Shown piece after piece: positions 5,370 to 40,640 of a DNA stretch of 44,513 bases. The stretch is from IMG/VR virus record IMGVR_UViG_2703718788_000013; one strand, given 5' to 3'. The stretch's first letter is position 1. Every line of letters begins with the position of its first letter. The position numbers were made by a program, and so were the translations under genes. Source of the stretch: a virus. Its lineage: Duplodnaviria > Heunggongvirae > Uroviricota > Caudoviricetes. The notes under the pieces are model-generated. The model ran no database searches. It was not told the origin of the DNA and saw only the letters and a program-made list of their open reading frames with translations.

Positions 5370-5705
5370 ATTGATAACAGAGGGCGTTGTAGCGGGGTTG
5401 TCACTTAAGCGTATGGTCAACCTGACAACCCGGTGTCCTCAACGGGGAAGGAATAACCCCGCCATACTTACCGCCGCGCCATTTCGCGGAGTGCCACAAC
5501 CGGAAGCGCACGGTCGAATTAAATTTAACGACACCGTACAGAGAGACCAATTTCGCCGTGCGCTTTCGCGTTATGCCTTGGCTTTTCAGGGATATATCCT
5601 TTCAGTAAACTGTCAGTACCGGATTCTTATCCGTGTCCGGCGCACGACCACACGTGACAGCGTGTTGGTCTCCATTTTTAACCCAGAACCTCAATGGAGG
5701 ATAAA

Positions 5706-5915
5706 ATGCCAAACAAAAAAAGAAATCCGCTTATTGAAAAACAGATTGAATGCCTGGTAAATCAACTCAGGCAATCAGGGTTATTAAAAACTCATTCAGA
5801 GTTGAGGCTCACAGAATCAGCATTCGACGATAAATTAAATAATGTCCTTTATAATGGCATTATTGATTTTAATCGTTCTGTTGGTCGCCGCGGCCCTGCT
5901 GGTGTTTCCTTATAA
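5706..5915 (+). CDS. Hypothetical 69-aa protein, encoded antisense to the early-left operon
   Basis: ATG at 5706 preceded by GGAGG 5 nt upstream; ORF-track 5694..5915. Confidence 0.45.
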   Translation: MPNKKRNPLIEKQIECLVNQLRQSGLLKTHSELRLTESAFDDKLNNVLYNGIIDFNRSVGRRGPAGVSL

Positions 5916-6554
5916 TTACCAGTCAATCCAGAGCGGACCGTGTTCAGCGTAAATATAACTGTACACATCCAGATTATATTTGTGGTCTGTTAAGAACAGG
6001 CCGCAAATACATGCCGAAGCTTCCAGGGCAGCGGCTCTGTTACTGAATAACCATGTAGCAACATTCCAGCGTTTTTCTGCATCCCAGTCTTTCTCAAGGC
6101 CTGATACCATGAAGAAACCGTTAGTGTTGCCATCAAATAATTCTGTTTCCAGATTTTTAAGCAATGCCTGATGGACTCTTGCCAGGTATTCCGCCGGAAT
6201 TTCGCCACGAATTCTGATGAGATTGTCATAAACAAACATGTTCCCCGCATATGGCGATTTTTCTTTCTTGTTTTTTAAACCAGCATCATGAGCAAACTGA
6301 TCAATTTCTTCTTCCGTTGGTTTCGTATTGATGTTTTGCGCTGTCGTTTCTGCAATTTTATTTGCCACACTCTCTGAGTCGTGTTTATTTACAGACGCAC
6401 AGAAATACAATCCGGTAAACGCATCGCGCACATTACGAGCCATATTATCAGTGTCTTTTTTCGTTACCGATTCCAATGCAAGTTCGTTCAGACGATGACG
6501 AAGTGTGTGTGCTGCAATCTCCTGGATTGAAGTAGGTAAATCTTTAAATTCCAT
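5916..6554 (-). CDS. Hypothetical early-left protein, 212 aa
   Basis: ORF-track 5916..6566; ATG at 6554 (MEFKDLPTSIQ) has GAGG 7 nt upstream and follows the stop of the upstream ORF. Confidence 0.6.
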   Translation of the reverse strand: MEFKDLPTSIQEIAAHTLRHRLNELALESVTKKDTDNMARNVRDAFTGLYFCASVNKHDSESVANKIAETTAQNINTKPTEEEIDQFAHDAGLKNKKEKSPYAGNMFVYDNLIRIRGEIPAEYLARVHQALLKNLETELFDGNTNGFFMVSGLEKDWDAEKRWNVATWLFSNRAAALEASACICGLFLTDHKYNLDVYSYIYAEHGPLWIDW

Positions 6555-6565
6555 CGTCAACCTCA

Positions 6566-6796
6566 TCAGTCAGAGTTTCTTGCTAACCAGCGATGCGCGC
6601 CAGCTTCGGTTTTAAACGTTTTACTTTTGGTATACGTCATCGCGGTGAACGTGCCGTCCTGGTTGGGAAACACGCCGTACACCAGAGATTCGTTGTTGCC
6701 AAGATCGATAGTATCCATGCTGACCTCATTTCCCCTTAACGCCGGGGTAGCGGAACAAAAACCTGCTGCATAGTTAAAGTTGAACCCTGCCGTCAT
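6566..6796 (-). CDS. Hypothetical early-left protein, 76 aa (first gene after putative pL)
   Basis: ORF-track 6566..6796 minus; tightly coupled to downstream ORF. Confidence 0.5.
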   Translation of the reverse strand: MTAGFNFNYAAGFCSATPALRGNEVSMDTIDLGNNESLVYGVFPNQDGTFTAMTYTKSKTFKTEAGAHRWLARNSD

Positions 6797-6899
6797 GTTC
6801 TTACGCCTCGGGCTGGCTACTTAACCCCTGACCACTGCCTGGTAACTCGAAGTATTGCCCTGCGTGCTGTGGGGCGGGGTGGGTTGGTATGTTGTCAAG

Positions 6900-6913
6900 G
6901 TAACAAGAGTTAC
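6900..6913. promoter_or_regulatory. OL-like operator, GTAAC-N4-GTTAC palindrome
   Basis: GTAACAAGAGTTAC between repressor gene end and first early-left ORF; same motif as the two sites in the cI-cro intergenic region. Confidence 0.5.
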
Positions 6914-6955
6914 CGGAAAAGTCAATGAGATGTTGCAAAAGGTACATACAGGAGC

Positions 6956-6981
6956 GCAAAAAACCCGCAATGAATGCGGGT
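6956..6981 (-). terminator. Intrinsic terminator downstream of repressor gene
   Basis: Minus-strand AACCCGCA / TGCGGGTT 8-bp stem followed by TTTTTT, just after repressor stop. Confidence 0.6.
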
Positions 6982-6987
6982 TCTGAC

Positions 6988-7662
6988 TCAGTCTAAATAT
7001 TGATGTATTTGTGAAACTTTACCTTTAATAGTGTAACCACCATTCAGTTCAATGGGTTTGTAAAGCGGATTCAGTGACAGCAGATAGATGTTTGGTCCGT
7101 CAATCGCAACTTTTTTTAGTGTTACGTTCGGCGTTCCTTCCAATTGGATTAAGATTATTTTTCCCACCAGTTCTCTAATGTTACTTGAGCATGGCGTGAT
7201 CAGCACGGTAGATCCGTCGGGGATGGTTGGGAGGCCGTTAGAGTTCGTCATCGCATCTCCCTCAACGCGCAATAAAAAAGAGTTTTCAGCGGTTTTTGTC
7301 ATGACATCAACCCAATTCTTAATACCAGGAATCTCGGTTACTGGGCAACTCATATCCCAATAACCAGCCTGTTCCCACGTTAAAACGGGCAACCGGGCGA
7401 TGTTGTCACTAATGTAAAGGTACTGATTCAGACGCAGATCGTCGGTTTTATCGTGACCATCCTTTCCATAAAGAATCCATTCAGGAGATTTGGAAAGCAA
7501 TTTTGACAGCAGATGCAAATTCTCACCGTCAGGTTTTGAAGAGCCATTTTCCCATTTTGTTACGGATACGCGAGATATGCCGATTGCTTTCGCAACCTGC
7601 TGTTGAGTTAGTCCAACGTCTTTTCGACGATTCCGAATACGTTCGCTGATAGTGTTTTTCAT
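6988..7662 (-). CDS. cI: CI-like repressor (HTH_XRE N-terminal domain plus S24 LexA-like C-terminal domain)
   Basis: ORF-track 6988..7761; C-terminal region aligns by eye with lambda CI (VEGDAMT versus VEGNSMT, TLKKV versus TFKKL, QAG linker); start placed at ATG 7662 to leave a 91-bp operator region before cro (ATG 7704 is an alternative). Confidence 0.8.
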   Translation of the reverse strand: MKNTISERIRNRRKDVGLTQQQVAKAIGISRVSVTKWENGSSKPDGENLHLLSKLLSKSPEWILYGKDGHDKTDDLRLNQYLYISDNIARLPVLTWEQAGYWDMSCPVTEIPGIKNWVDVMTKTAENSFLLRVEGDAMTNSNGLPTIPDGSTVLITPCSSNIRELVGKIILIQLEGTPNVTLKKVAIDGPNIYLLSLNPLYKPIELNGGYTIKGKVSQIHQYLD

Positions 7663-7724
7663 GTAACCAATGTTACCACCAAGTGATGTTACTGTGGTTG
7701 ACATCTTTATGTAACTATTGTTAC
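7663..7724. promoter_or_regulatory. OR-like operator region with GTAAC-N4-GTTAC palindromes between cI and cro
   Basis: GTAACCAATGTTAC at 7663-7676 and GTAACTATTGTTAC at 7711-7724, plus a GTTAC half-site near 7688; divergent cI/cro starts flank it. Confidence 0.55.
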
Positions 7725-7753
7725 CCTTTTGTTCGAAATAACAGGAGAGTTTT

Positions 7754-7969
7754 ATGTTCAAAGATGATGTTCTGCGCTATTTCAAAAAAAAGCGACTAGT
7801 AGCTGAGGCTCTTGGAATTTCACATGTGGCTGTTGTGCGGTGGAAAGCAGTTATTCCCAAACTTCGCGCAATGGAGCTGGATGAAATTACTAACGGTGAA
7901 TTGAAATACAATCCAGAACTTTACAAGAAGCAGGATAGCACCTCGAACGAAGGAAAGAATGATTCATGA
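7754..7969 (+). CDS. cro: Cro-like small HTH regulator
   Basis: 71-aa ORF divergent from cI, AGGAG ribosome-binding site at 7743-7749; HTH-like segment RLVAEALGISHVAVVRWK. Confidence 0.7.
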   Translation: MFKDDVLRYFKKKRLVAEALGISHVAVVRWKAVIPKLRAMELDEITNGELKYNPELYKKQDSTSNEGKNDS

Positions 7970-8391
7970 AAATCAAGCATGAACACATCCGCATGGCGAT
8001 GAATGCCTGGGCGCATCCGGACGGCGAAAAAATACCGGCTGCGAAAATTACCAAAGCGTATTTCGAACTGGGAATGACGTTCCCGGAACTGTATGACGAC
8101 AGCCATCCGGAAGCTCTGGCTCGCAATACTCAGAAAATTTTCCGCTGGGTAGAGAAAGACACCCCTGATGCAGTTGAAAAAATTCAGGCGTTGTTACCAG
8201 CGATCGAAAAGGCAATGCCACCTTTGCTGGTGGCCAGAATGCGCAGCCACAGTTCAGCTTATTTTCGGGAGCTGGTGGAAACGCGGGAGCGATTGGTGAG
8301 AGACGCTGATGATTTTGTCGCAGTGGCAATCGCCGGTTTCAATCAGATGAACCGTGGTGGCCCGGCAGGAAATGCTGTGGCAGTACATTGA
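7966..8391 (+). CDS. YdaT-like protein (CII-position regulator)
   Basis: 141-aa ORF translationally coupled to cro (ATGA overlap); N-terminus MKIKHEHIRMAMNAW resembles Rac YdaT as remembered. Confidence 0.5.
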   Translation: MKIKHEHIRMAMNAWAHPDGEKIPAAKITKAYFELGMTFPELYDDSHPEALARNTQKIFRWVEKDTPDAVEKIQALLPAIEKAMPPLLVARMRSHSSAYFRELVETRERLVRDADDFVAVAIAGFNQMNRGGPAGNAVAVH

Positions 8392-8462
8392 CTGACAATA
8401 GCCATATCGAATCGCTTCCGGCAACTCGTGAGTAAAAAGATTCGGTATCAGAAGAGGTGAGT

Positions 8463-9533
8463 ATGGCTAACGCCTGGCTCAGATTATGGCATGACATGCC
8501 GAATGACCCTAAGTGGCGAACAATTGCCAGGGTGTCAGGGCAGCCAATTGCAACAGTGATGGCAGTGTATATCCACCTCCTGGTGAGCGCGTCACGAAAT
8601 GTCACGCGAGGTCACATTGATGTCACGACAGAAGATTTGGCAAGTGCGCTCGACGTGACAGAAGAGGTAATTGATTCAATTTTGCAGACGATGCAGGGGC
8701 GGGTACTTGATGGTGATTTAATCACTGGATGGGAAAAACGCCAGGTGCTGAAAGAGGACAACGGCAATATTTCGCAAACCGCAAAATCTCCTGCAGAGCG
8801 CAAGAGGGCGCAGCGAGAGAGGGAAAGAAAGCGGGAACAAAATGGCGATTGTCACGGCGCGTCACGAAATGTCACGCACATGTCACGACGAGTCACGACA
8901 GATAAAGATACAGATAAAGATACAGATAAAGAAGATCAAAACACTATGGTCCATGGCGTAAAAAACGCCACGAACCAGGCAGGGGATGTTCAGTCCGTCA
9001 ATCCTGGTCAGCCAGCAGGCACGACACCGGAAGCCGATTCAGCGTATGCGCTGAAAGCCGATTCGGGCGCTGTGCAGCAGGTGATGACCGCAAGGCCGGA
9101 GCAATCACTCCAACTGCAGCAGCCTGAAGCCGATTCCGCCATTCAGCGGGAGGCCGAGCGGGTAGCCCCGGAAAACACCGGGCAGCCTGTGGGACGAGTG
9201 GATTATCCAGAAGTGTTCGAACAGGTCTGGCGGGAATACCCGTTGCGTGCCGGGGCAAACCCGAAGAAATCCGCTTTCAGTGCCTGGAAGGCCAGATTAC
9301 GCGAGGGGGTGCCACCAGAGGCCATGCTAGATGGTGTGAGGCGTTACGCAAGATACCTGGCGGCTACCGGGAAAACGGGAACGGAATTTGTTCAGCGAGC
9401 GACGACGTTTTTTGGACCGGACCGGAATTTTGAAAACCCCTGGTTGCTCCCGGTAAGCGGTACGAACAACCAGCGTTGCGTGAATCACATTTCTGAACCA
9501 GATACCGAAATTCCACCGGGCTTCAGGGGGTAA
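8463..9533 (+). CDS. Replication initiation protein (O-like), with origin repeats inside the coding sequence
   Basis: 356 aa from ATG 8463 with GAAGAGG upstream; positioned after the cro/cII-like genes; contains two iteron clusters and an AT-rich repeat. Confidence 0.65.
   Translation: MANAWLRLWHDMPNDPKWRTIARVSGQPIATVMAVYIHLLVSASRNVTRGHIDVTTEDLASALDVTEEVIDSILQTMQGRVLDGDLITGWEKRQVLKEDNGNISQTAKSPAERKRAQRERERKREQNGDCHGASRNVTHMSRRVTTDKDTDKDTDKEDQNTMVHGVKNATNQAGDVQSVNPGQPAGTTPEADSAYALKADSGAVQQVMTARPEQSLQLQQPEADSAIQREAERVAPENTGQPVGRVDYPEVFEQVWREYPLRAGANPKKSAFSAWKARLREGVPPEAMLDGVRRYARYLAATGKTGTEFVQRATTFFGPDRNFENPWLLPVSGTNNQRCVNHISEPDTEIPPGFRG
8591..8934. repeat. Putative replication origin: two clusters of GTCACG iterons plus three tandem 11-bp GATAAAGATAC repeats
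   Basis: GTCAC(G/A) at 8591, 8601, 8611, 8623 and at 8851, 8861, 8871, 8882, 8892 with about 10-bp periodicity; tandem repeat at 8901-8934. Confidence 0.6.
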
Positions 9534-11775: not shown

Positions 11776-11986
11776 TTTCATATTGGCGAGGTAACGGTAG
11801 TTAAGTAGAATGGCTGTGGGTGCTTGAGGCTATCTGCCTCGGGCATGAACACCAACGGCAGATAGAGAAAAGCCCCAGTTAACATTACGCGTCCTGCAAG
11901 ACGCTTAACATTAATCTGAGGCCAATTTCATGCTAGACACATGTAGGTTAGCCTCTTACGTGCCGAAAGGCAAGGAGAAGCAGGCT

Positions 11987-34647: not shown

Positions 34648-37600
34648 ATGGGTAAAGGCAGCAGTAAGGGGCATACCCCGCGCGAAGCGAAGGACAACCT
34701 GAAATCATCCCAGCTGCTGAGCGTGATAGACGCCATCAGTGAAGGGCCGATTGAAGGTCCGGTGGACGGATTAAAAAGTGTGCTGCTGAACAGTACGCCG
34801 GTGCTGGACAGTGAGGGGAATACCAATATCTCCGGTGTCACGGTGGTGTTCCGGGCAGGTGAGCAGGAGCAGACACCGCCGGAGGGATTTGAATCCTCCG
34901 GTTCAGAAACCGTTATCGGTGCAGAATTAAAATATGACAATCCGCTCACCCGGACCATCACGTCGGCAAACATCGACCGTCTGCGCCTGACCTTCGGTGT
35001 GCAGGCACTGGTGGAAACCACTTCAAAGGGGGACCGGAATCCGTCGGAAGTCCGCCTGCTGGTTCAGATACAACGTAACGGTGGCTGGGTGACGGAAAAA
35101 GACATCACCATTAAGGGCAAAACCACCTCACAGTATCTGGCCTCGGTGGTGGTGGATAACCTGCCGCCGCGCCCGTTCAGTATCCGGCTGCGCAGGATGA
35201 CGCCGGACAGCACCACAGACCAGCTGCAGAACAAAACGCTCTGGTCGTCATACACCGAAATTATCGATGTGAAACAGTGCTACCCGAACACGGCACTGGT
35301 CGGCGTACAGGTGGATTCGGAGCAGTTCGGCAGCCAGCAGGTGAGCCGTAATTATCATCTTCGCGGGCGCATTCTGCAGGTGCCGTCGAACTATAACCCG
35401 CAGACGCGGCAATACAGCGGTATCTGGGACGGAACGTTAAAACCGGCATACAGCAACAACATGGCCTGGTGTCTGTGGGATATGCTGACCCACCCGCGCT
35501 ACGGCATGGGGAAACGTCTTGGTGCGGCGGATGTTGATAAATGGGCGTTGTATGCCATCGGTCGGTACTGCGACCAGTCGGTACCGGATGGCTCTGGCGG
35601 CACGGAGCCGCGCATCACCTGTAATGCGTACCTGACCACACAGCGCAAGGCGTGGGATGTGCTCAGTGATTTCTGCTCGGCGATGCGCTGTATGCCGGTA
35701 TGGAACGGGCAGACGCTGACGTTCGTGCAGGACCGGCCATCGGATAAGGTGTGGACCTATAACCGCAGTAATGTGGTGATGCCGGATGATGGCGCGCCGT
35801 TCCGCTACAGCTTCAGCGCCCTGAAGGACCGCCATAATGCCGTTGAGGTGAACTGGATTGACCCGAACAACGGCTGGGAGACGGCGACAGAGCTTGTTGA
35901 AGATACGCAGGCCATTGCCCGTTACGGTCGTAATGTTACGAAGATGGATGCCTTTGGCTGTACCAGTCGGGGGCAGGCACACAGAGCCGGGCTGTGGCTG
36001 ATTAAAACGGAGCTGCTGGAAACGCAGACCGTGGATTTCAGCGTGGGCGCAGAAGGGCTTCGCCATGTACCGGGCGATGTCATTGAAATCTGTGATGATG
36101 ACTATGCCGGTATCAGCACCGGCGGGCGCGTGCTGGCGGTAAACAGCCAGACCCGGACGCTGACGCTCGACCGTGAAATCACGCTGCCATCCTCCGGCAC
36201 CACGCTGATAAGCCTGGTTGACGGAAATGGCAATCCGGTCAGCGTGGAGGTTCAGTCCGTCACTGATGGCGTGAAGGTAAAAGTGAGCCGTGTTCCTGAC
36301 GGCGTTGCCGGATACAGTGTATGGGGGCTGAAGCTGCCGATGCTGCGCCAGCGCCTGTTCCGCTGCGTGAGTATCCGTGAGAACGACGACAGCACGTATG
36401 CCATCACCGCCGTGCAGCATGTACCGGAAAAAGAGGCCATCGTGGATAACGGGGCGCACTTTGACGGCGACCAGAGTGGCACGGTGAATGGTGTCACGCC
36501 GCCAGCGGTGCAGCACCTGACCGCAGAAGTCACCGCAGACAGTGGGGAATATCAGGTGCTGGCGCGCTGGGACACGCCGAAGATGGTGAAGGGCGTGAGC
36601 TTCCTGCTTCGCCTGACCGTGGCAGCGGACGATGGCAGTGAGCGGCTGGTCAGCACGGCCAGGACGACGGAAACCACATACCGCTTCACGCAACTGGCAC
36701 TGGGAAATTACAGGCTGACAGTCCGGGCGGTAAATGCGTGGGGACAGCAGGGCGATCCGGCATCGGTATCGTTCCGGATTGCCGCACCGGCAGCACCGTC
36801 GCGGATTGAGCTGACGCCGGGCTATTTTCAGATAACCGCCACGCCGCATCTTGCGGTTTATGATCCGACGGTACAGTTTGACTTCTGGTTCTCGGAAAAA
36901 CGGATTGCTGATATCAGGCAGGTTGAAACCAGCGCGCGTTATCTTGGTACGGCGCTGTACTGGATAGCCGCCAGTATCAATATCAAACCGGGCCATGATT
37001 ATTATTTTTACGTTCGCAGTGTGAACACCGTTGGCAAATCGGCATTCGTGGAGGCTGTCGGTCAGCCGAGTGATGATGCATCAGGCTATCTGGATTTTTT
37101 CAAAGGCGAGATAGGGAAAACCCATCTGGCTCAGGAGCTGTGGACGCAGATTGATAACGGTCAGCTTGCGCCTGACCTGACTGAAATCAGGACGTCCATA
37201 ACGGATGTCAGCAATGAAATAACACAGACCGTCAATAAGAAACTGGAAGACCAGAGTGCAGCGATCCAGCAGATACAGAAGGTTCAGGTTGATACAAATA
37301 ATAACCTGAACAGCATGTGGGCAGTGAAGCTGCAGCAGATGCAGGATGGACGCCTTTATATTGCGGGTATCGGTGCCGGTATTGAGAACACCCCCGACGG
37401 CATGCAGAGTCAGGTGCTGCTGGCGGCAGACAGGATTGCGATGATTAATCCTGCGAATGGCAACACAAAGCCGATGTTTGTTGGTCAGGGCGATCAGATA
37501 TTCATGAACGACGTGTTCCTGAAGCGTCTGACGGCCCCGACCATCACCAGCGGCGGCAATCCTCCGGCATTTTCCCTGACACCGGACGGGCGCCTGACGG

Positions 37601-38145
37601 CGAAAAACGCTGATATCAGCGGTAACGTGAATGCGAACTCAGGAACGCTCAACAATGTCACGATAAGTGAGAACTGTACGATTAAGGGCATGCTGGAGGC
37701 GACCCAGGTCAGAGGGGATTTCGTTAAAGCTGTATCAAAAGCCTTCCCGAAAAAAGTCGGTACGTGGGGTAACACGGAAACACCAGACGGTACGGTTACA
37801 GTCACCATCAGCGATGATCATAACTTTGACCGTCAAATCATTATTCCGCCCATTATTTTTAACGGTATAGCGTATACCGATCCGGGGAGCGGAAATAACC
37901 CCGGAGGCACGCGATACACGGGTTATGGTTTTGAAGTTCGCAAAAACGGCGTATTAATCGCATCCAGAGAAACTAAAGGGGCCATTCCCGGTAGTTACAG
38001 TGCGGTTATTGATATGCCGGGTGGCAGGGGAAGCGTCACTCTGGAGTTTAAGATTTACCAGAAAGGCAATCAGGGGGCAGGCAATATCACCGACTGTACG
38101 GTGATTGTGACCAAAAAAGCGGCTTCCGGCATCAGTATCCGTTGA
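34648..38145 (+). CDS. J: Central tail fiber / host specificity protein J
   Basis: 1165 aa from ATG 34648 ([20 protein letters not shown]...); lambda gpJ-like for about 950 aa, then a C-terminal region that does not resemble lambda J. Confidence 0.95.
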
Positions 38146-38166
38146 AATATTTATAACCCGATAACG

Positions 38167-38190
38167 GGCGCCAGAAATGGCGCCTTTTTT
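38167..38190 (+). terminator. Intrinsic terminator after J
   Basis: GGCGCC AGAAAT GGCGCC followed by TTTTTT. Confidence 0.7.
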
Positions 38191-38205
38191 ATTTGTGGAG
38201 TGAGT

Positions 38206-39519
38206 ATGGCAGTACAGATTTCAGGTGTACTGAAAGATGGTGCAGGTAAGCCGATACAAAACTGCACCATTCAGCTAAAGGCCAGACGTAACAGCACCAC
38301 GGTGGTGGTGAACACGGTGGCTTCAGAAAACCCGGATGAAGCCGGGCGTTACACAATGGACGTTGAGTACGGTCAGTACAGCGTCATTCTGTTGGTGGAG
38401 GGATTTCCGCCGTCACATGCCGGGACCATCACCGTGTATGAAGATTCTCAGCCGGGTACGCTGAATGATTTTCTCGGTGCCATGACGGAGGAGGATGTCC
38501 GACCGGAGGCACTGCGCCGTTTTGAACAGATGGTGGAGGAGGCAGCGCGTCACGCTGAGGAGGCGAAGAAGAATGCCGGAGAGGCAGAGACGTCAGCGAG
38601 GAATGCGGGTATATCAGCCGGCCAGGCGGAAAAGAGTGCAGTAAATGCTGAGACTTCAGCAGGGGATGCATCGGAGTCAGCCCGGCAGGCGACGGAAAGT
38701 GCAGCCTCAGCAAAGCAGTCAGAGGATGCGTCCTCGTCCTCGGCTTCTGCGGCCGCTCAAAAAGCCAGTGAGTCATCACAAAGTGCAGCAGAAGCTGAAT
38801 TGTCAAGAAAGACGGCAGAAAGTGCAGCCGGTAATGCATCCAGGGATGCAACGACCGCAGCAGAAAAAGCCCGGGAGTCAGCAGAAAGCGCACAGTCAGC
38901 GGAACAAAGCAGGATAGCGGCGGAAGAGGCCGTAAACCGAATCCCCACCGTGGTGGGACCTCCCGGGCCAAAGGGGGAACAGGGGCCCGCTGGCCCTCAG
39001 GGGCCGAAGGGTGATAAGGGAGAGCGTGGTGACACCGGCCCTGTCGGGGCAACCGGCGAACGGGGACCGAGAGGAGATACAGGTCCGGCAGGCCCGCAGG
39101 GGCCGAAAGGCGACAGGGGGGAACGGGGAGAGACCGGTCTGACGGGAAGTACAGGTCCACAGGGGCCAAAGGGAGATACCGGTGCAGCAGGCCCGGCAGG
39201 CCCACAGGGACCGAAAGGAGAAACAGGAGCGGCAGGTCCGGTGGGGGCTACCGGACCTCAGGGGCCGAAGGGAGACCCGGGCGAGACACAAATCCGTTTT
39301 CGTCTGGGGCCGATGAGCATTATTGAGACAAACAGCTATGGCTGGTTCCCGGATACAGATGGTGCGCTCATCACCGGACTGACCTTTCTTGACCCCAAAG
39401 ATGCCACACAGGTTCAGGGGATGTTTCAGCATTTGCAGGTCAGATTTGGTGACGGGCCGTGGCAGGATGTTAAGGGGCTGGATGAAGTGGGCAGTGATAC
39501 AGGCAGAACAGGAGAATGA
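38206..39519 (+). CDS. stf: Side tail fiber protein (lambda Stf-like N-terminus, collagen-like Gly-X-Y repeats)
   Basis: 437 aa; N-terminal about 90 aa resemble lambda Stf ([26 protein letters not shown]...); long GPxGxxG repeat tract between residues about 245 and 350. Confidence 0.85.
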
Positions 39520-39520
39520 C

Positions 39521-39790
39521 ATGAACATACTAAAAAAACTTATGCAGCGTCTGTGCGGTTGCGGAAAGCATGATGGCCGTGAACACGGGCAGTCACTTAC
39601 AGCACAACTGCGACTGGGGCCGGCAGACATCCTGGAGTCAGATGAGAATGGTATTATCCCGGAGCAGGCCATGGTAATCACTCAGGTGGTGATACTGGAT
39701 GCGGATAAAAAGCAGATACAGTGCGTGGTAAGACCGCTGCAAATTCTGCGTGCTGACGGGACGTGGGAAAATATTGGCGGGATGAAGTAA
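39521..39790 (+). CDS. Hypothetical 89-aa protein downstream of stf (tail fiber assembly position)
   Basis: ATG at 39521, two bases after stf stop; ORF-track 39389..39790 in frame. Confidence 0.5.
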   Translation: MNILKKLMQRLCGCGKHDGREHGQSLTAQLRLGPADILESDENGIIPEQAMVITQVVILDADKKQIQCVVRPLQILRADGTWENIGGMK

Positions 39791-39806
39791 CCCGACAGTT
39801 TCACAA

Positions 39807-39830
39807 AACCGGAGTCCGGCTCCGGTTTTT
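39807..39830 (+). terminator. Intrinsic terminator at end of tail module
   Basis: ACCGGAG TCCGG CTCCGGT followed by TTTTT. Confidence 0.7.
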
Positions 39831-39999
39831 GTGTTGCAATGTCCGGGGGATATTTGTTAAGTAGATGACAGAGGAGCTAATTTAACAGGGAGATAAATTA
39901 ATGCCGATAAATCTGACATCTTATTTGGGGTTACAGGGGGCGAAAGTTGTCCCGGCAGTTGTTTTTTCTAAAATTTAGTCTTGTTGGGGAAAATGACAT

Positions 40000-40590
40000 A
40001 TGCCATTGATAACATCCAGCCTTTCATCAAATGTTGCTTTGCAGAGTATTGAAATATTACGTGAAGCTGCCAGACAAAACCTGATTACGAAAGCTATTAC
40101 TATAAATGGGCAGAAAGTTGGTATTCATTATTATCACCGCCCTGACGTTTTTCTAGTTTCTGGTTGTAAGGATGGGATGTTAAAAACATTATTAGAGTTA
40201 GGGTTAAATGGTAGCAATGAGTCAGCCAAAAGGCTTCGTTCATGGCAAATTTCCTCTGTAATTGATACTCATCTGAGTTTTTTACCATTAGGTATATGCT
40301 ATAAAATACTTTCAAGTTCTTTTCCTGTACATTCGGAAGAGGTTTTTTTTCCAGAAGAACATCTCAAGTGTCCAATAATATTAGATGCTCCAGATAATGG
40401 TGTTTTTATAAAGAACTCTGTAAGTGCAAAAGTTTGTAACCTATATGATAAAAATGCAATGTTAAAGTTAGTTATATCTGGTTCTCCACATCCATTAAGT
40501 AGAGAGCCAATAACAGAATCAATGATTATGAGAAAAGATGAATGTTATTTTGATCCCAAAACAGAGTCTTTTGTTGTAAATGATGTTTAA
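40000..40590 (+). CDS. nleG: NleG-like type III effector (U-box E3 ubiquitin ligase family)
   Basis: 196 aa in AT-rich DNA; C-terminal region HLKCPIILDAPDNGVFIKNSVSAKVCNLYD...SPHPLSREPIT resembles NleG U-box domain as remembered. Confidence 0.6.
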   Translation: MPLITSSLSSNVALQSIEILREAARQNLITKAITINGQKVGIHYYHRPDVFLVSGCKDGMLKTLLELGLNGSNESAKRLRSWQISSVIDTHLSFLPLGICYKILSSSFPVHSEEVFFPEEHLKCPIILDAPDNGVFIKNSVSAKVCNLYDKNAMLKLVISGSPHPLSREPITESMIMRKDECYFDPKTESFVVNDV

Positions 40591-40640
40591 TTTTTTTATT
40601 GGTGTTACTTTTAGTGGACTAAGTTGAAGGAGTGCGATAA

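Follow-up and report, generated by a model that had tools for sequence, protein, structure and literature searches.

What is the role of the three copies of a 14-bp palindrome, GTAAC-N4-GTTAC, that lie on both sides of the repressor gene of an Escherichia coli prophage? We addressed this question in a 44,513-bp stretch of Caudoviricetes DNA (IMG/VR record IMGVR_UViG_2703718788_000013; this whole stretch is hereafter called the window), which corresponds to a lambdoid prophage located beside tRNA-Ser/mtfA in E. coli 377323_2f (100% match). The initial annotation, made from the sequence alone, had presented the palindromes as the right and left operators (OR and OL) of the repressor and as the determinants of immunity specificity. 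Our data indicate that they are very probably the repressor/Cro operators of a P22-type immunity switch, because the genes that they flank have homologs in such switches, their positions are fixed in distant relatives, their sequence covaries with the third helix (helix 3) of the adjoining DNA-binding proteins, their spacing and promoter register are those of P22, and they are located in an exchangeable cassette. These five independent comparative lines sustain the OR/OL layout, with corrections: OR would be a three-site region in which OR2 is weak and decaying, OL consists of one strong and one degenerate site, and the length of the interval depends on a corrected repressor start. That these sites would define immunity specificity is a well-supported inference.

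The Palindromes Are Confined to Two Regulatory Regions

An exact-pattern search of the window returned GTAACNNNNGTTAC three times, at 6900–6913, 7663–7676, and 7711–7724, and nowhere else, which restricts the motif to the regulatory regions on the two sides of this repressor gene. Shuffling gave a mean of 0.01 matches to GTAAC-N4-GTTAC, and none of 100 dinucleotide-preserving shuffles reached three. Two of the exact copies fall in the interval between the repressor gene and cro, and the third between the repressor terminator and the first early-left open reading frame (ORF), just as the initial annotation had placed them. The operators, together with the weaker elements found at partner positions, are as follows.

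6900–6913: OL1, GTAACAAGAGTTAC; perfect palindrome between the −35 and −10 elements of the leftward promoter PL
6932–6945: OL2-position element, GTTGCAAAAGGTAC; 3 mismatches; its centre is 32 bp from that of OL1, on the upstream side of the PL −35
7663–7676: OR3, GTAACCAATGTTAC; perfect palindrome flush with the repressor ATG, containing the putative −10 of the maintenance promoter PRM
7688–7701: OR2-position weak site, GTTACTGTGGTTGA; 3 mismatches, at 25 bp from OR3 on one side and 23 bp from OR1 on the other, overlapping the −35 of the rightward promoter PR
7711–7724: OR1, GTAACTATTGTTAC; perfect palindrome between the PR −35 and −10

OR1 and OR3 are thus both perfect, 48 bp apart, and placed as in P22; no OL3 was seen in the window. 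When one mismatch was allowed, only one further site appeared, at 11791–11804, for an analytic chance estimate of ~1.3. This copy (GTAACGGTAGTTAA) falls in an unrelated intergenic region, with an acetyltransferase gene on one side and hokD on the other. It was considered as a fourth operator and set aside as consistent with chance.

Flanking Genes and Conservation of Site Positions

The genes and the terminator that frame the palindromes are the following.

6988–7662, minus strand: repressor, 224 amino acids, with HTH_3 (Pfam E 2e−16) and Peptidase_S24 (E 2.5e−17) domains
7754–7969, plus strand: Cro, 71 amino acids (P22_Cro, Pfam E 2.9e−16; P22 Cro 1rzs, E 9e−12)
7966–8391, plus strand: YdaT-family protein (YdaT_toxin, Pfam E 7.4e−10)
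~6958–6985, minus strand: intrinsic terminator of the repressor gene, AACCCGCA/TGCGGGTT followed by a T run; fold ΔG −18.2 kcal/mol, z −3.79
6566–6796 (or 6566–6718), minus strand: DUF1391 (YdfA-like) protein, the first early-left ORF

The repressor possesses the N-terminal helix-turn-helix (HTH) of P22 c2/lambda cI-type two-domain repressors: its N-terminal domain aligns without gaps to that of P22 c2 (1adr/2r1j/3jxb; phmmer E ~3e−12, residues 5–67), and its C-terminal domain aligns to lambda cI (3bdn, E 1e−13). It is divergently arranged with a cro gene of the P22_Cro family across a short interval, 91 bp here and ~87–99 bp in those relatives in which the cro start could be located. A hairpin followed by a T run is found after the repressor stop in most relatives. 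YdaT, encoded next to Cro, is regarded as a functional analogue of cII (PMC9986795, PMC8630535), and the genes found leftward of DUF1391 are, according to the annotation of the record, kil, a dicB remnant, and exo. A consensus promoter/terminator scan of positions 6700–7800 called no promoter and no terminator; its threshold of at least 4/6 matches per hexamer excludes TACCTT, TACCCT, and TAACAT, and its T-run rule missed the well-folding terminator.

By scanning one genome per species, we assembled a comparative set of 59 loci. The 28 relatives from other genera comprise 20 loci of a clade A, whose repressors are ~42–54% identical (among their genera are Arsenophonus, Yersinia, Chania, Buttiauxella, Rahnella, Kluyvera, Kosakonia, Mangrovibacter, Phytobacter, Erwinia, Edwardsiella, Pseudescherichia, Klebsiella, Celerinatantimonas, and Superficieibacter), and 8 loci of a clade B (~40%). 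A site with at most one mismatch starts at −14 from the repressor ATG, the OR3 position, in 19 of the 20 clade A loci (at −17 in L022) and in 27 of the 28 relatives when both clades are considered. At the OR1 position, 18 of the 20 clade A loci have their site at −62, the remaining two having it at −65 (L022) or at −62 with two mismatches (L010); over both clades, a site with at most one mismatch begins at −62 in 26 of the 28 relatives. On the OL side, one to three sites are present 39–122 bp past the repressor stop in 25 of these 28 loci, and neighbouring sites are usually 34–35 bp apart. Site positions are therefore fixed in the 28 relatives while the surrounding DNA diverges. Indeed, the half-site columns of OR1 and OR3, computed on 22 distinct clade A sequences (three E. 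coli copies included), hold 1.8–2.0 bits (1.7–2.0 for OR3), as against 0.48 in the gap from −25 to −15 and 0.56 in the upstream flank. Among the E. coli copies, the OR3 and OR1 palindromes are invariant, including in a copy that is 83% identical; the latter also keeps the half-sites of OL1, with a spacer changed from AAGA to AGAA.

The weaker sites behave differently. At OR2, 14 of 19 clade A relatives and 7 of 8 clade B loci have a perfect inner half-site, and the outer half overlaps the PR −35. The half-site that the initial annotation had noticed between the two palindromes is this inner half; the GTTAC does exist at 7688–7692, but its central base is flipped relative to the more distant relatives and the closest E. 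coli copies read GTTGC and GTCAC. OR2 is thus weak and apparently decaying in this lineage. The OL2 position carries a site with at most two mismatches in most relatives, usually 34–35 bp from OL1, and is degenerate in the window and in two further loci (L001 and L002).

A Series of Half-Sites and Recognition Helices

The half-site itself differs among the relatives. Clade B loci (L024–L029, L033, and L046) carry GTAGG/CCTAC half-sites at −14, at −62, and after the terminator, and loci of a clade C (a subset of L031–L059, ~35% identical), whose repressor gene is leadered, carry CTAAG-N4-CTTAG-like sites. Together with P22, this makes four pairings of half-site and helix 3.

GTAAC (clade A): repressor SRVSVTKWE (S or T first); Cro H(V/P)AV(V/C/S)RW
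GTAGG (clade B): repressor NRVT(V/I)TGWE; Cro HASVSGW
CTAAG (clade C): repressor SDV(A/S/T)VG(Y/F)WE; Cro (S/P)EA(V/F)YQW
TTAAG (P22): repressor SNVAISQWE; Cro SDAAVSQW

Helix 3 of the repressor and helix 3 of Cro change in parallel with the half-site, which in itself is a correlation only. Such a parallel change in two unrelated DNA-binding folds nevertheless gives strong correlative evidence that the palindromes would be read by both proteins and would set immunity specificity. The TA of the half-site is invariant across GTAAC, GTAGG, CTAAG, and TTAAG, which suggests that in PR, PL, and PRM alike it also serves as the −12/−11 TA of the −10 element, the variable positions falling on the least constrained positions of these elements.

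In full-text searches of the literature, including that on YdaT-type switches, we found no description of a GTAAC/GTTAC operator specificity, and a preprint on the CI clades of Shiga toxin (Stx) phages gives no operators. The half-site specificity is apparently undescribed; the architecture is of the known P22 immC kind, with no new mechanism. The four half-sites, displayed on a fixed scaffold, constitute a test set for HTH recognition rules and for the design of orthogonal repressor/operator pairs, and the operator code predicts which prophages are mutually immune.

The Sites Lie in an Exchangeable Immunity Cassette

6894–7959: exchangeable immunity cassette of ~1.07 kb (OL, PL, terminator, repressor gene, OR, cro)

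Phages Evi and Tritos, which encode different repressors, are 93–99% identical to the window in the flanks of this segment; the homology stops at 6893 (Evi) or 6884 (Tritos) and resumes at 7960. Because homology with phages of other immunity breaks at these points, all three palindromes are located in the exchangeable cassette, along with both promoters, the terminator, the repressor gene, and cro. The cassette thereby matches the classical definition of an immunity region. It was found in 702 of 5,426 complete E. coli genomes (~13%), and a DNA search of 50,697 phage records recovered the module in none of them, the matches being to the flanks only or weak (~67–75%) and within other CI genes.

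Promoters and Proposed Mechanism

The predicted promoter elements associated with the sites, and a candidate site for YdaT, are listed below.

7698–7703, plus strand: PR −35, TTGACA, followed by 7 nt and then OR1
7722–7727, plus strand: PR −10 as predicted from the sequence, TACCCT, with an 18-nt spacer, overlapping the last 3 bases of OR1
7670–7675, minus strand: putative PRM −10, TAACAT, 7 nt before the A of the ATG
6920–6925, minus strand: PL −35, TTGACT, with a 17-nt spacer to the −10
6897–6902, minus strand: predicted PL −10, TACCTT, overlapping the last 3 bases of OL1 and not called by the scanner
7959–7976: YdaT-type box, ATGATTCATGAAAATCAA, at the cro/ydaT junction and the right breakpoint of the cassette

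In the relatives, the PR −10 reads TACCTT with a 17-nt spacer. The PL −35 is TTGAC(A/C/T) in most of them, and the site homologous to OL1 is found 6 nt after this hexamer in most relatives and in P22; the register of the PL −10 is likewise shared with TACATT (relatives) and TAAATT (P22). As to PRM, the spacer of OR3 opens with AT in all clade A and clade B loci, which creates TAACAT or TAGGAT; the P22 counterpart, TAAGAT, occupies this operator register 9 nt upstream of its ATG. No Shine–Dalgarno sequence precedes the ATG in clade A. The arrangement that we predict, with reasonable though not full confidence, is one in which OR3 incorporates the −10 of a maintenance promoter and the repressor mRNA starting from it would be leaderless. 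Leaderless repressor mRNAs are on record for lambda cI, CP-933P PaaR2 (by 5′ RACE), and PY54 cI (PMC8630535, PMC4488713).

In the mechanism that we propose, a dimer of the c2-like repressor (helix 3 SRVSVTKWE) and a dimer of the P22-type Cro would each bind two GTAAC half-sites, with the four central bases lying between them. Because OR1 and OL1 are located between the −35 and the −10 and overlap the latter, sharing three bases with each −10, repressor bound there would occlude RNA polymerase from PR and PL; this would silence cro, ydaT, and the replication genes rightward, and the ydfA-kil-dicB-exo operon leftward. An excess of repressor at OR3 would turn off repressor synthesis (negative autoregulation), and so would Cro bound there. 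OR2 and OL2, at the positions of the P22 partner sites, could be cooperative helpers that are now weak, and activation of PRM is, like this cooperativity, a prediction.

The YdaT-type box is the sole match with at most one mismatch to TTGATTN6AATCAA in the window (it has one mismatch; 0.13 expected). In CP-933P, a footprinted YdaT site, OM, has the sequence TTGATTN6AATCAA and occupies the same location at the cro/ydaT junction (PMC9986795). This suggests that 7959–7976 is a candidate YdaT site and that YdaT might drive establishment transcription of the repressor gene, similar to that from the promoter PRE.

The leader of the PL transcript (~6719–6895, minus strand), upstream of the DUF1391 gene, is long, strongly conserved between E. 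coli copies, and also common to phages of other immunity types. In the other-genus relatives it starts with ...CATCAACAGCGAACAGGCAGGACGCCCACGAAGTAGCC..., like the PL transcript of P22 (CATCAGCAGGACGCTGGTAGCC). A role in processing, antitermination, or translational control is conceivable; an Rfam scan of positions 5500–9000 with E-values up to 1 gave two sub-threshold chance hits only, and no family for this leader.

Alternative Readings of the Palindromes

One alternative rests on the annotated start codon of the repressor. RefSeq/PGAP places the start at ATG 7704, so that the protein has 238 amino acids, 7663–7676 falls in the coding sequence, and the interval to cro shrinks to 49 bp. The same 7704-type start is annotated in all three E. 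coli records that we examined, and PGAP annotates the 238-residue protein in about 700 genomes. The palindrome at 7663–7676 would then be merely coding (...GGNIGY) and kept for protein reasons, leaving 7711–7724 as the sole OR operator, and the apparent conservation of an "NIGYM" extension in protein alignments (to 45% identity) agrees with this. We rejected the latter argument after comparison at the DNA level: "NIGY" is the translation of GT-AAC-ATT-GGT-TAC, that is, of the OR3 operator. Moreover, among 25 relatives (the L004–L006 group was left out of these counts), 20 have no upstream in-frame ATG and 17 have an in-frame stop 6–14 codons upstream of the ATG, and the palindrome is invariant and flush with the ATG even in relatives that lack an upstream in-frame ATG. 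Clade B displays a different palindrome at this position, the upstream ATG (7702–7704) is the PR −35 TTGACA with the next T (TTGACAT) read backwards, and the Pfam HTH_3 domain starts at residue 9 of the short, 224-residue form. A purely coding role is thus highly improbable. On the comparative data, the repressor start is ATG 7662, not 7704, and the start is probably misannotated in most of the ~700 genomes that carry the module. Because the repressor starts at ATG 7662, the 91-bp interval (7663–7753) given by the initial annotation is correct, a value that would fail under the RefSeq/PGAP start. For a module carried by ~13% of complete E. coli genomes, the analysis thus sets out the operator code, the layout of the promoters, and the correct repressor start.

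The sites might also be bound by another factor, such as YdaT, a host protein, or a restriction–modification controller, or be chance or structural repeats without a regulatory role, and the assignment of the binding protein from sequence leaves some room for this. However, three copies contrast with a chance expectation of 0.01, the motif recognised by the characterised YdaT (TTGATTN6AATCAA) is a different one, the half-site covaries with helix 3 of the adjoining repressor and Cro, and the sites move with the immunity cassette, so that we give this reading very little credit. Several observations do weigh against a classical switch operated from these palindromes. In the window, OR2 and OL2 have three mismatches each, their sequence differs between E. 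coli copies, and the tripartite cooperative model may no longer be applicable in this lineage; the conservation score of OR2 is, in addition, partly due to the overlapping PR −35. No promoter was called by the consensus scan, the −10 hexamers match TATAAT at 3–4 of 6 positions, and the putative PRM −35 is very poor (ACCACA). Finally, the induction half of the switch may be inoperative without a catalytic serine in the repressor (see below). The weakness of the PRM −35 and the silence of the scanner also speak for a variant in which the operators are real and the repressor mRNA is leadered. Transcription would start upstream, within or beyond OR or at a YdaT-activated PRE-like promoter in cro, and OR3 would be a roadblock or an element of the 5′ untranslated region. 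In clade B, an AGGA found 8–9 nt before the ATG could act as a Shine–Dalgarno sequence, and an establishment transcript with a long leader is suggested by the YdaT-type box where cro and ydaT meet. On the other hand, clade A has no such sequence before the ATG, two specificities share a TAnnAT at 7 nt from the ATG, which P22 has in the same operator register (9 nt), and related switches provide precedents for leaderless repressor mRNAs. A leadered mRNA, which departs from the operator reading in the PRM sub-mechanism only, therefore appears unlikely, although less so than the two readings discussed before it.

Loss of the Catalytic Serine and Prophage Context

Residue 137 of the repressor is an alanine (GDAMT; minus-strand codon GCG, 7252–7254) where lambda has GNSMT, the position of the catalytic serine (S149 in lambda cI and S119 in LexA). 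The S24 fold, the Ala-Gly cleavage motif (QAG), and the dyad lysine are present, and the serine of the catalytic Ser-Lys dyad is missing. A 61-mer containing the Ala codon is identical in 681 of 683 E. coli genomes, and its Ser version occurs in none, whereas Ser is kept (G(D/E)SM) in all 29 other relatives, namely the 83%-identical E. coli copy and the 28 other-genus loci. The substitutions S119A in LexA and S149A in lambda cI abolish RecA-stimulated self-cleavage. By analogy, the Ala repressor is probably unable to cleave itself, and the prophage would not be SOS-inducible by that route. No antirepressor is annotated in the prophage record.

The loss of the nucleophile, together with the perfect state of OR1, OR3, and OL1 and the decay of OR2 and OL2, raises the possibility, which we put forward tentatively and do not favour over a switch, that the operators serve as a one-way, SOS-blind lock. 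Such a lock would permanently silence the toxic genes of the kil/dicB type and would stabilise a prophage that, in this strain, carries nleC, nleG, espJ, and a HECT E3 ligase gene; induction would then need an undiscovered antirepressor or would never occur. In any case, a repressor that is probably not SOS-inducible controls, in this strain, a prophage endowed with virulence effectors.

The structural module of the prophage is lambda-like and looks complete, and in the 377323_2f genome the integrase gene is frameshifted and dicB truncated. Past the tail fibre genes (window ~37,000–44,513; NZ_CP039404.1 2,903,137–2,910,000), we observed type III secretion system effector cargo, with genes for an NleG-family protein, a HECT-type E3 ubiquitin ligase effector, and NleC; genes for an EspF-repeat protein and EspJ lie just past the end of the window.

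Comparison with Known Switches

P22 provides the closest parallel. Its repressor contacts positions 2–7 and 12–17 of an 18-bp site and leaves positions 8–11 uncontacted (PMC4267663), a geometry that xGTAAC-N4-GTTACx fits. The OR positions are spaced by 25 + 23 bp in both systems, and their centres are found at −9.5, −34.5, and −57.5 from the c2 ATG in the P22-species genome L063 and at −7.5, −32.5, and −55.5 here, so that the sites are 2 bp nearer to the ATG in the window. In both, OR3 adjoins the repressor ATG and holds TAnnAT in the same register. PL is also organised alike, with TTGACC, 6 nt, and a core site whose end is overlapped by the −10 in P22, and TTGACT, 6 nt, and OL1 here; the N-terminal domain of the repressor and Cro are homologous. 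The two systems differ in the half-site and repressor helix 3 (TTAAG and SNVAISQWE in P22, GTAAC and SRVSVTKWE here), in the degeneracy of OR2 and OL2 (P22 has OR1–3 and OL1–3), in the replacement of c1/cII by a YdaT-type protein, in the lack of an N/nut system beside PL, and in the Ala found here in place of the catalytic Ser of the repressor.

With lambda, the switch shares a homologous C-terminal domain of the repressor with QAG and the dyad Lys, divergent promoters, an OR3 that overlaps PRM, and a leaderless repressor mRNA (a prediction here). In contrast, the lambda operators are 17 bp long and of unrelated sequence, and its Cro has a different fold. Lambda OR3 is located between the −35 and −10 of PRM, whereas OR3 spans the putative PRM −10 through +1 here. 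The likeness to 434 lies in 14-bp operators with uncontacted central bases that modulate affinity and in a weak N-terminal homology (1per, E 3e−5). The 434 half-site is ACAA, with a 6-bp centre; half-site and centre length thus differ from those described here, and the homology is more distant than with P22.

The PaaR2/YdaS/YdaT module of CP-933P (E. coli O157:H7) and the RacR/YdaS/YdaT module of Rac display a similar gene order, a repressor gene followed by divergent cro-like and ydaT genes, and have a YdaT box at the cro/ydaT junction and early-left genes of the kil/dicB type. Their repressors, PaaR2 and RacR, are short proteins that lack the S24 domain and use other operators, whereas the module described here combines a two-domain c2/cI repressor with a Cro of the P22_Cro family.

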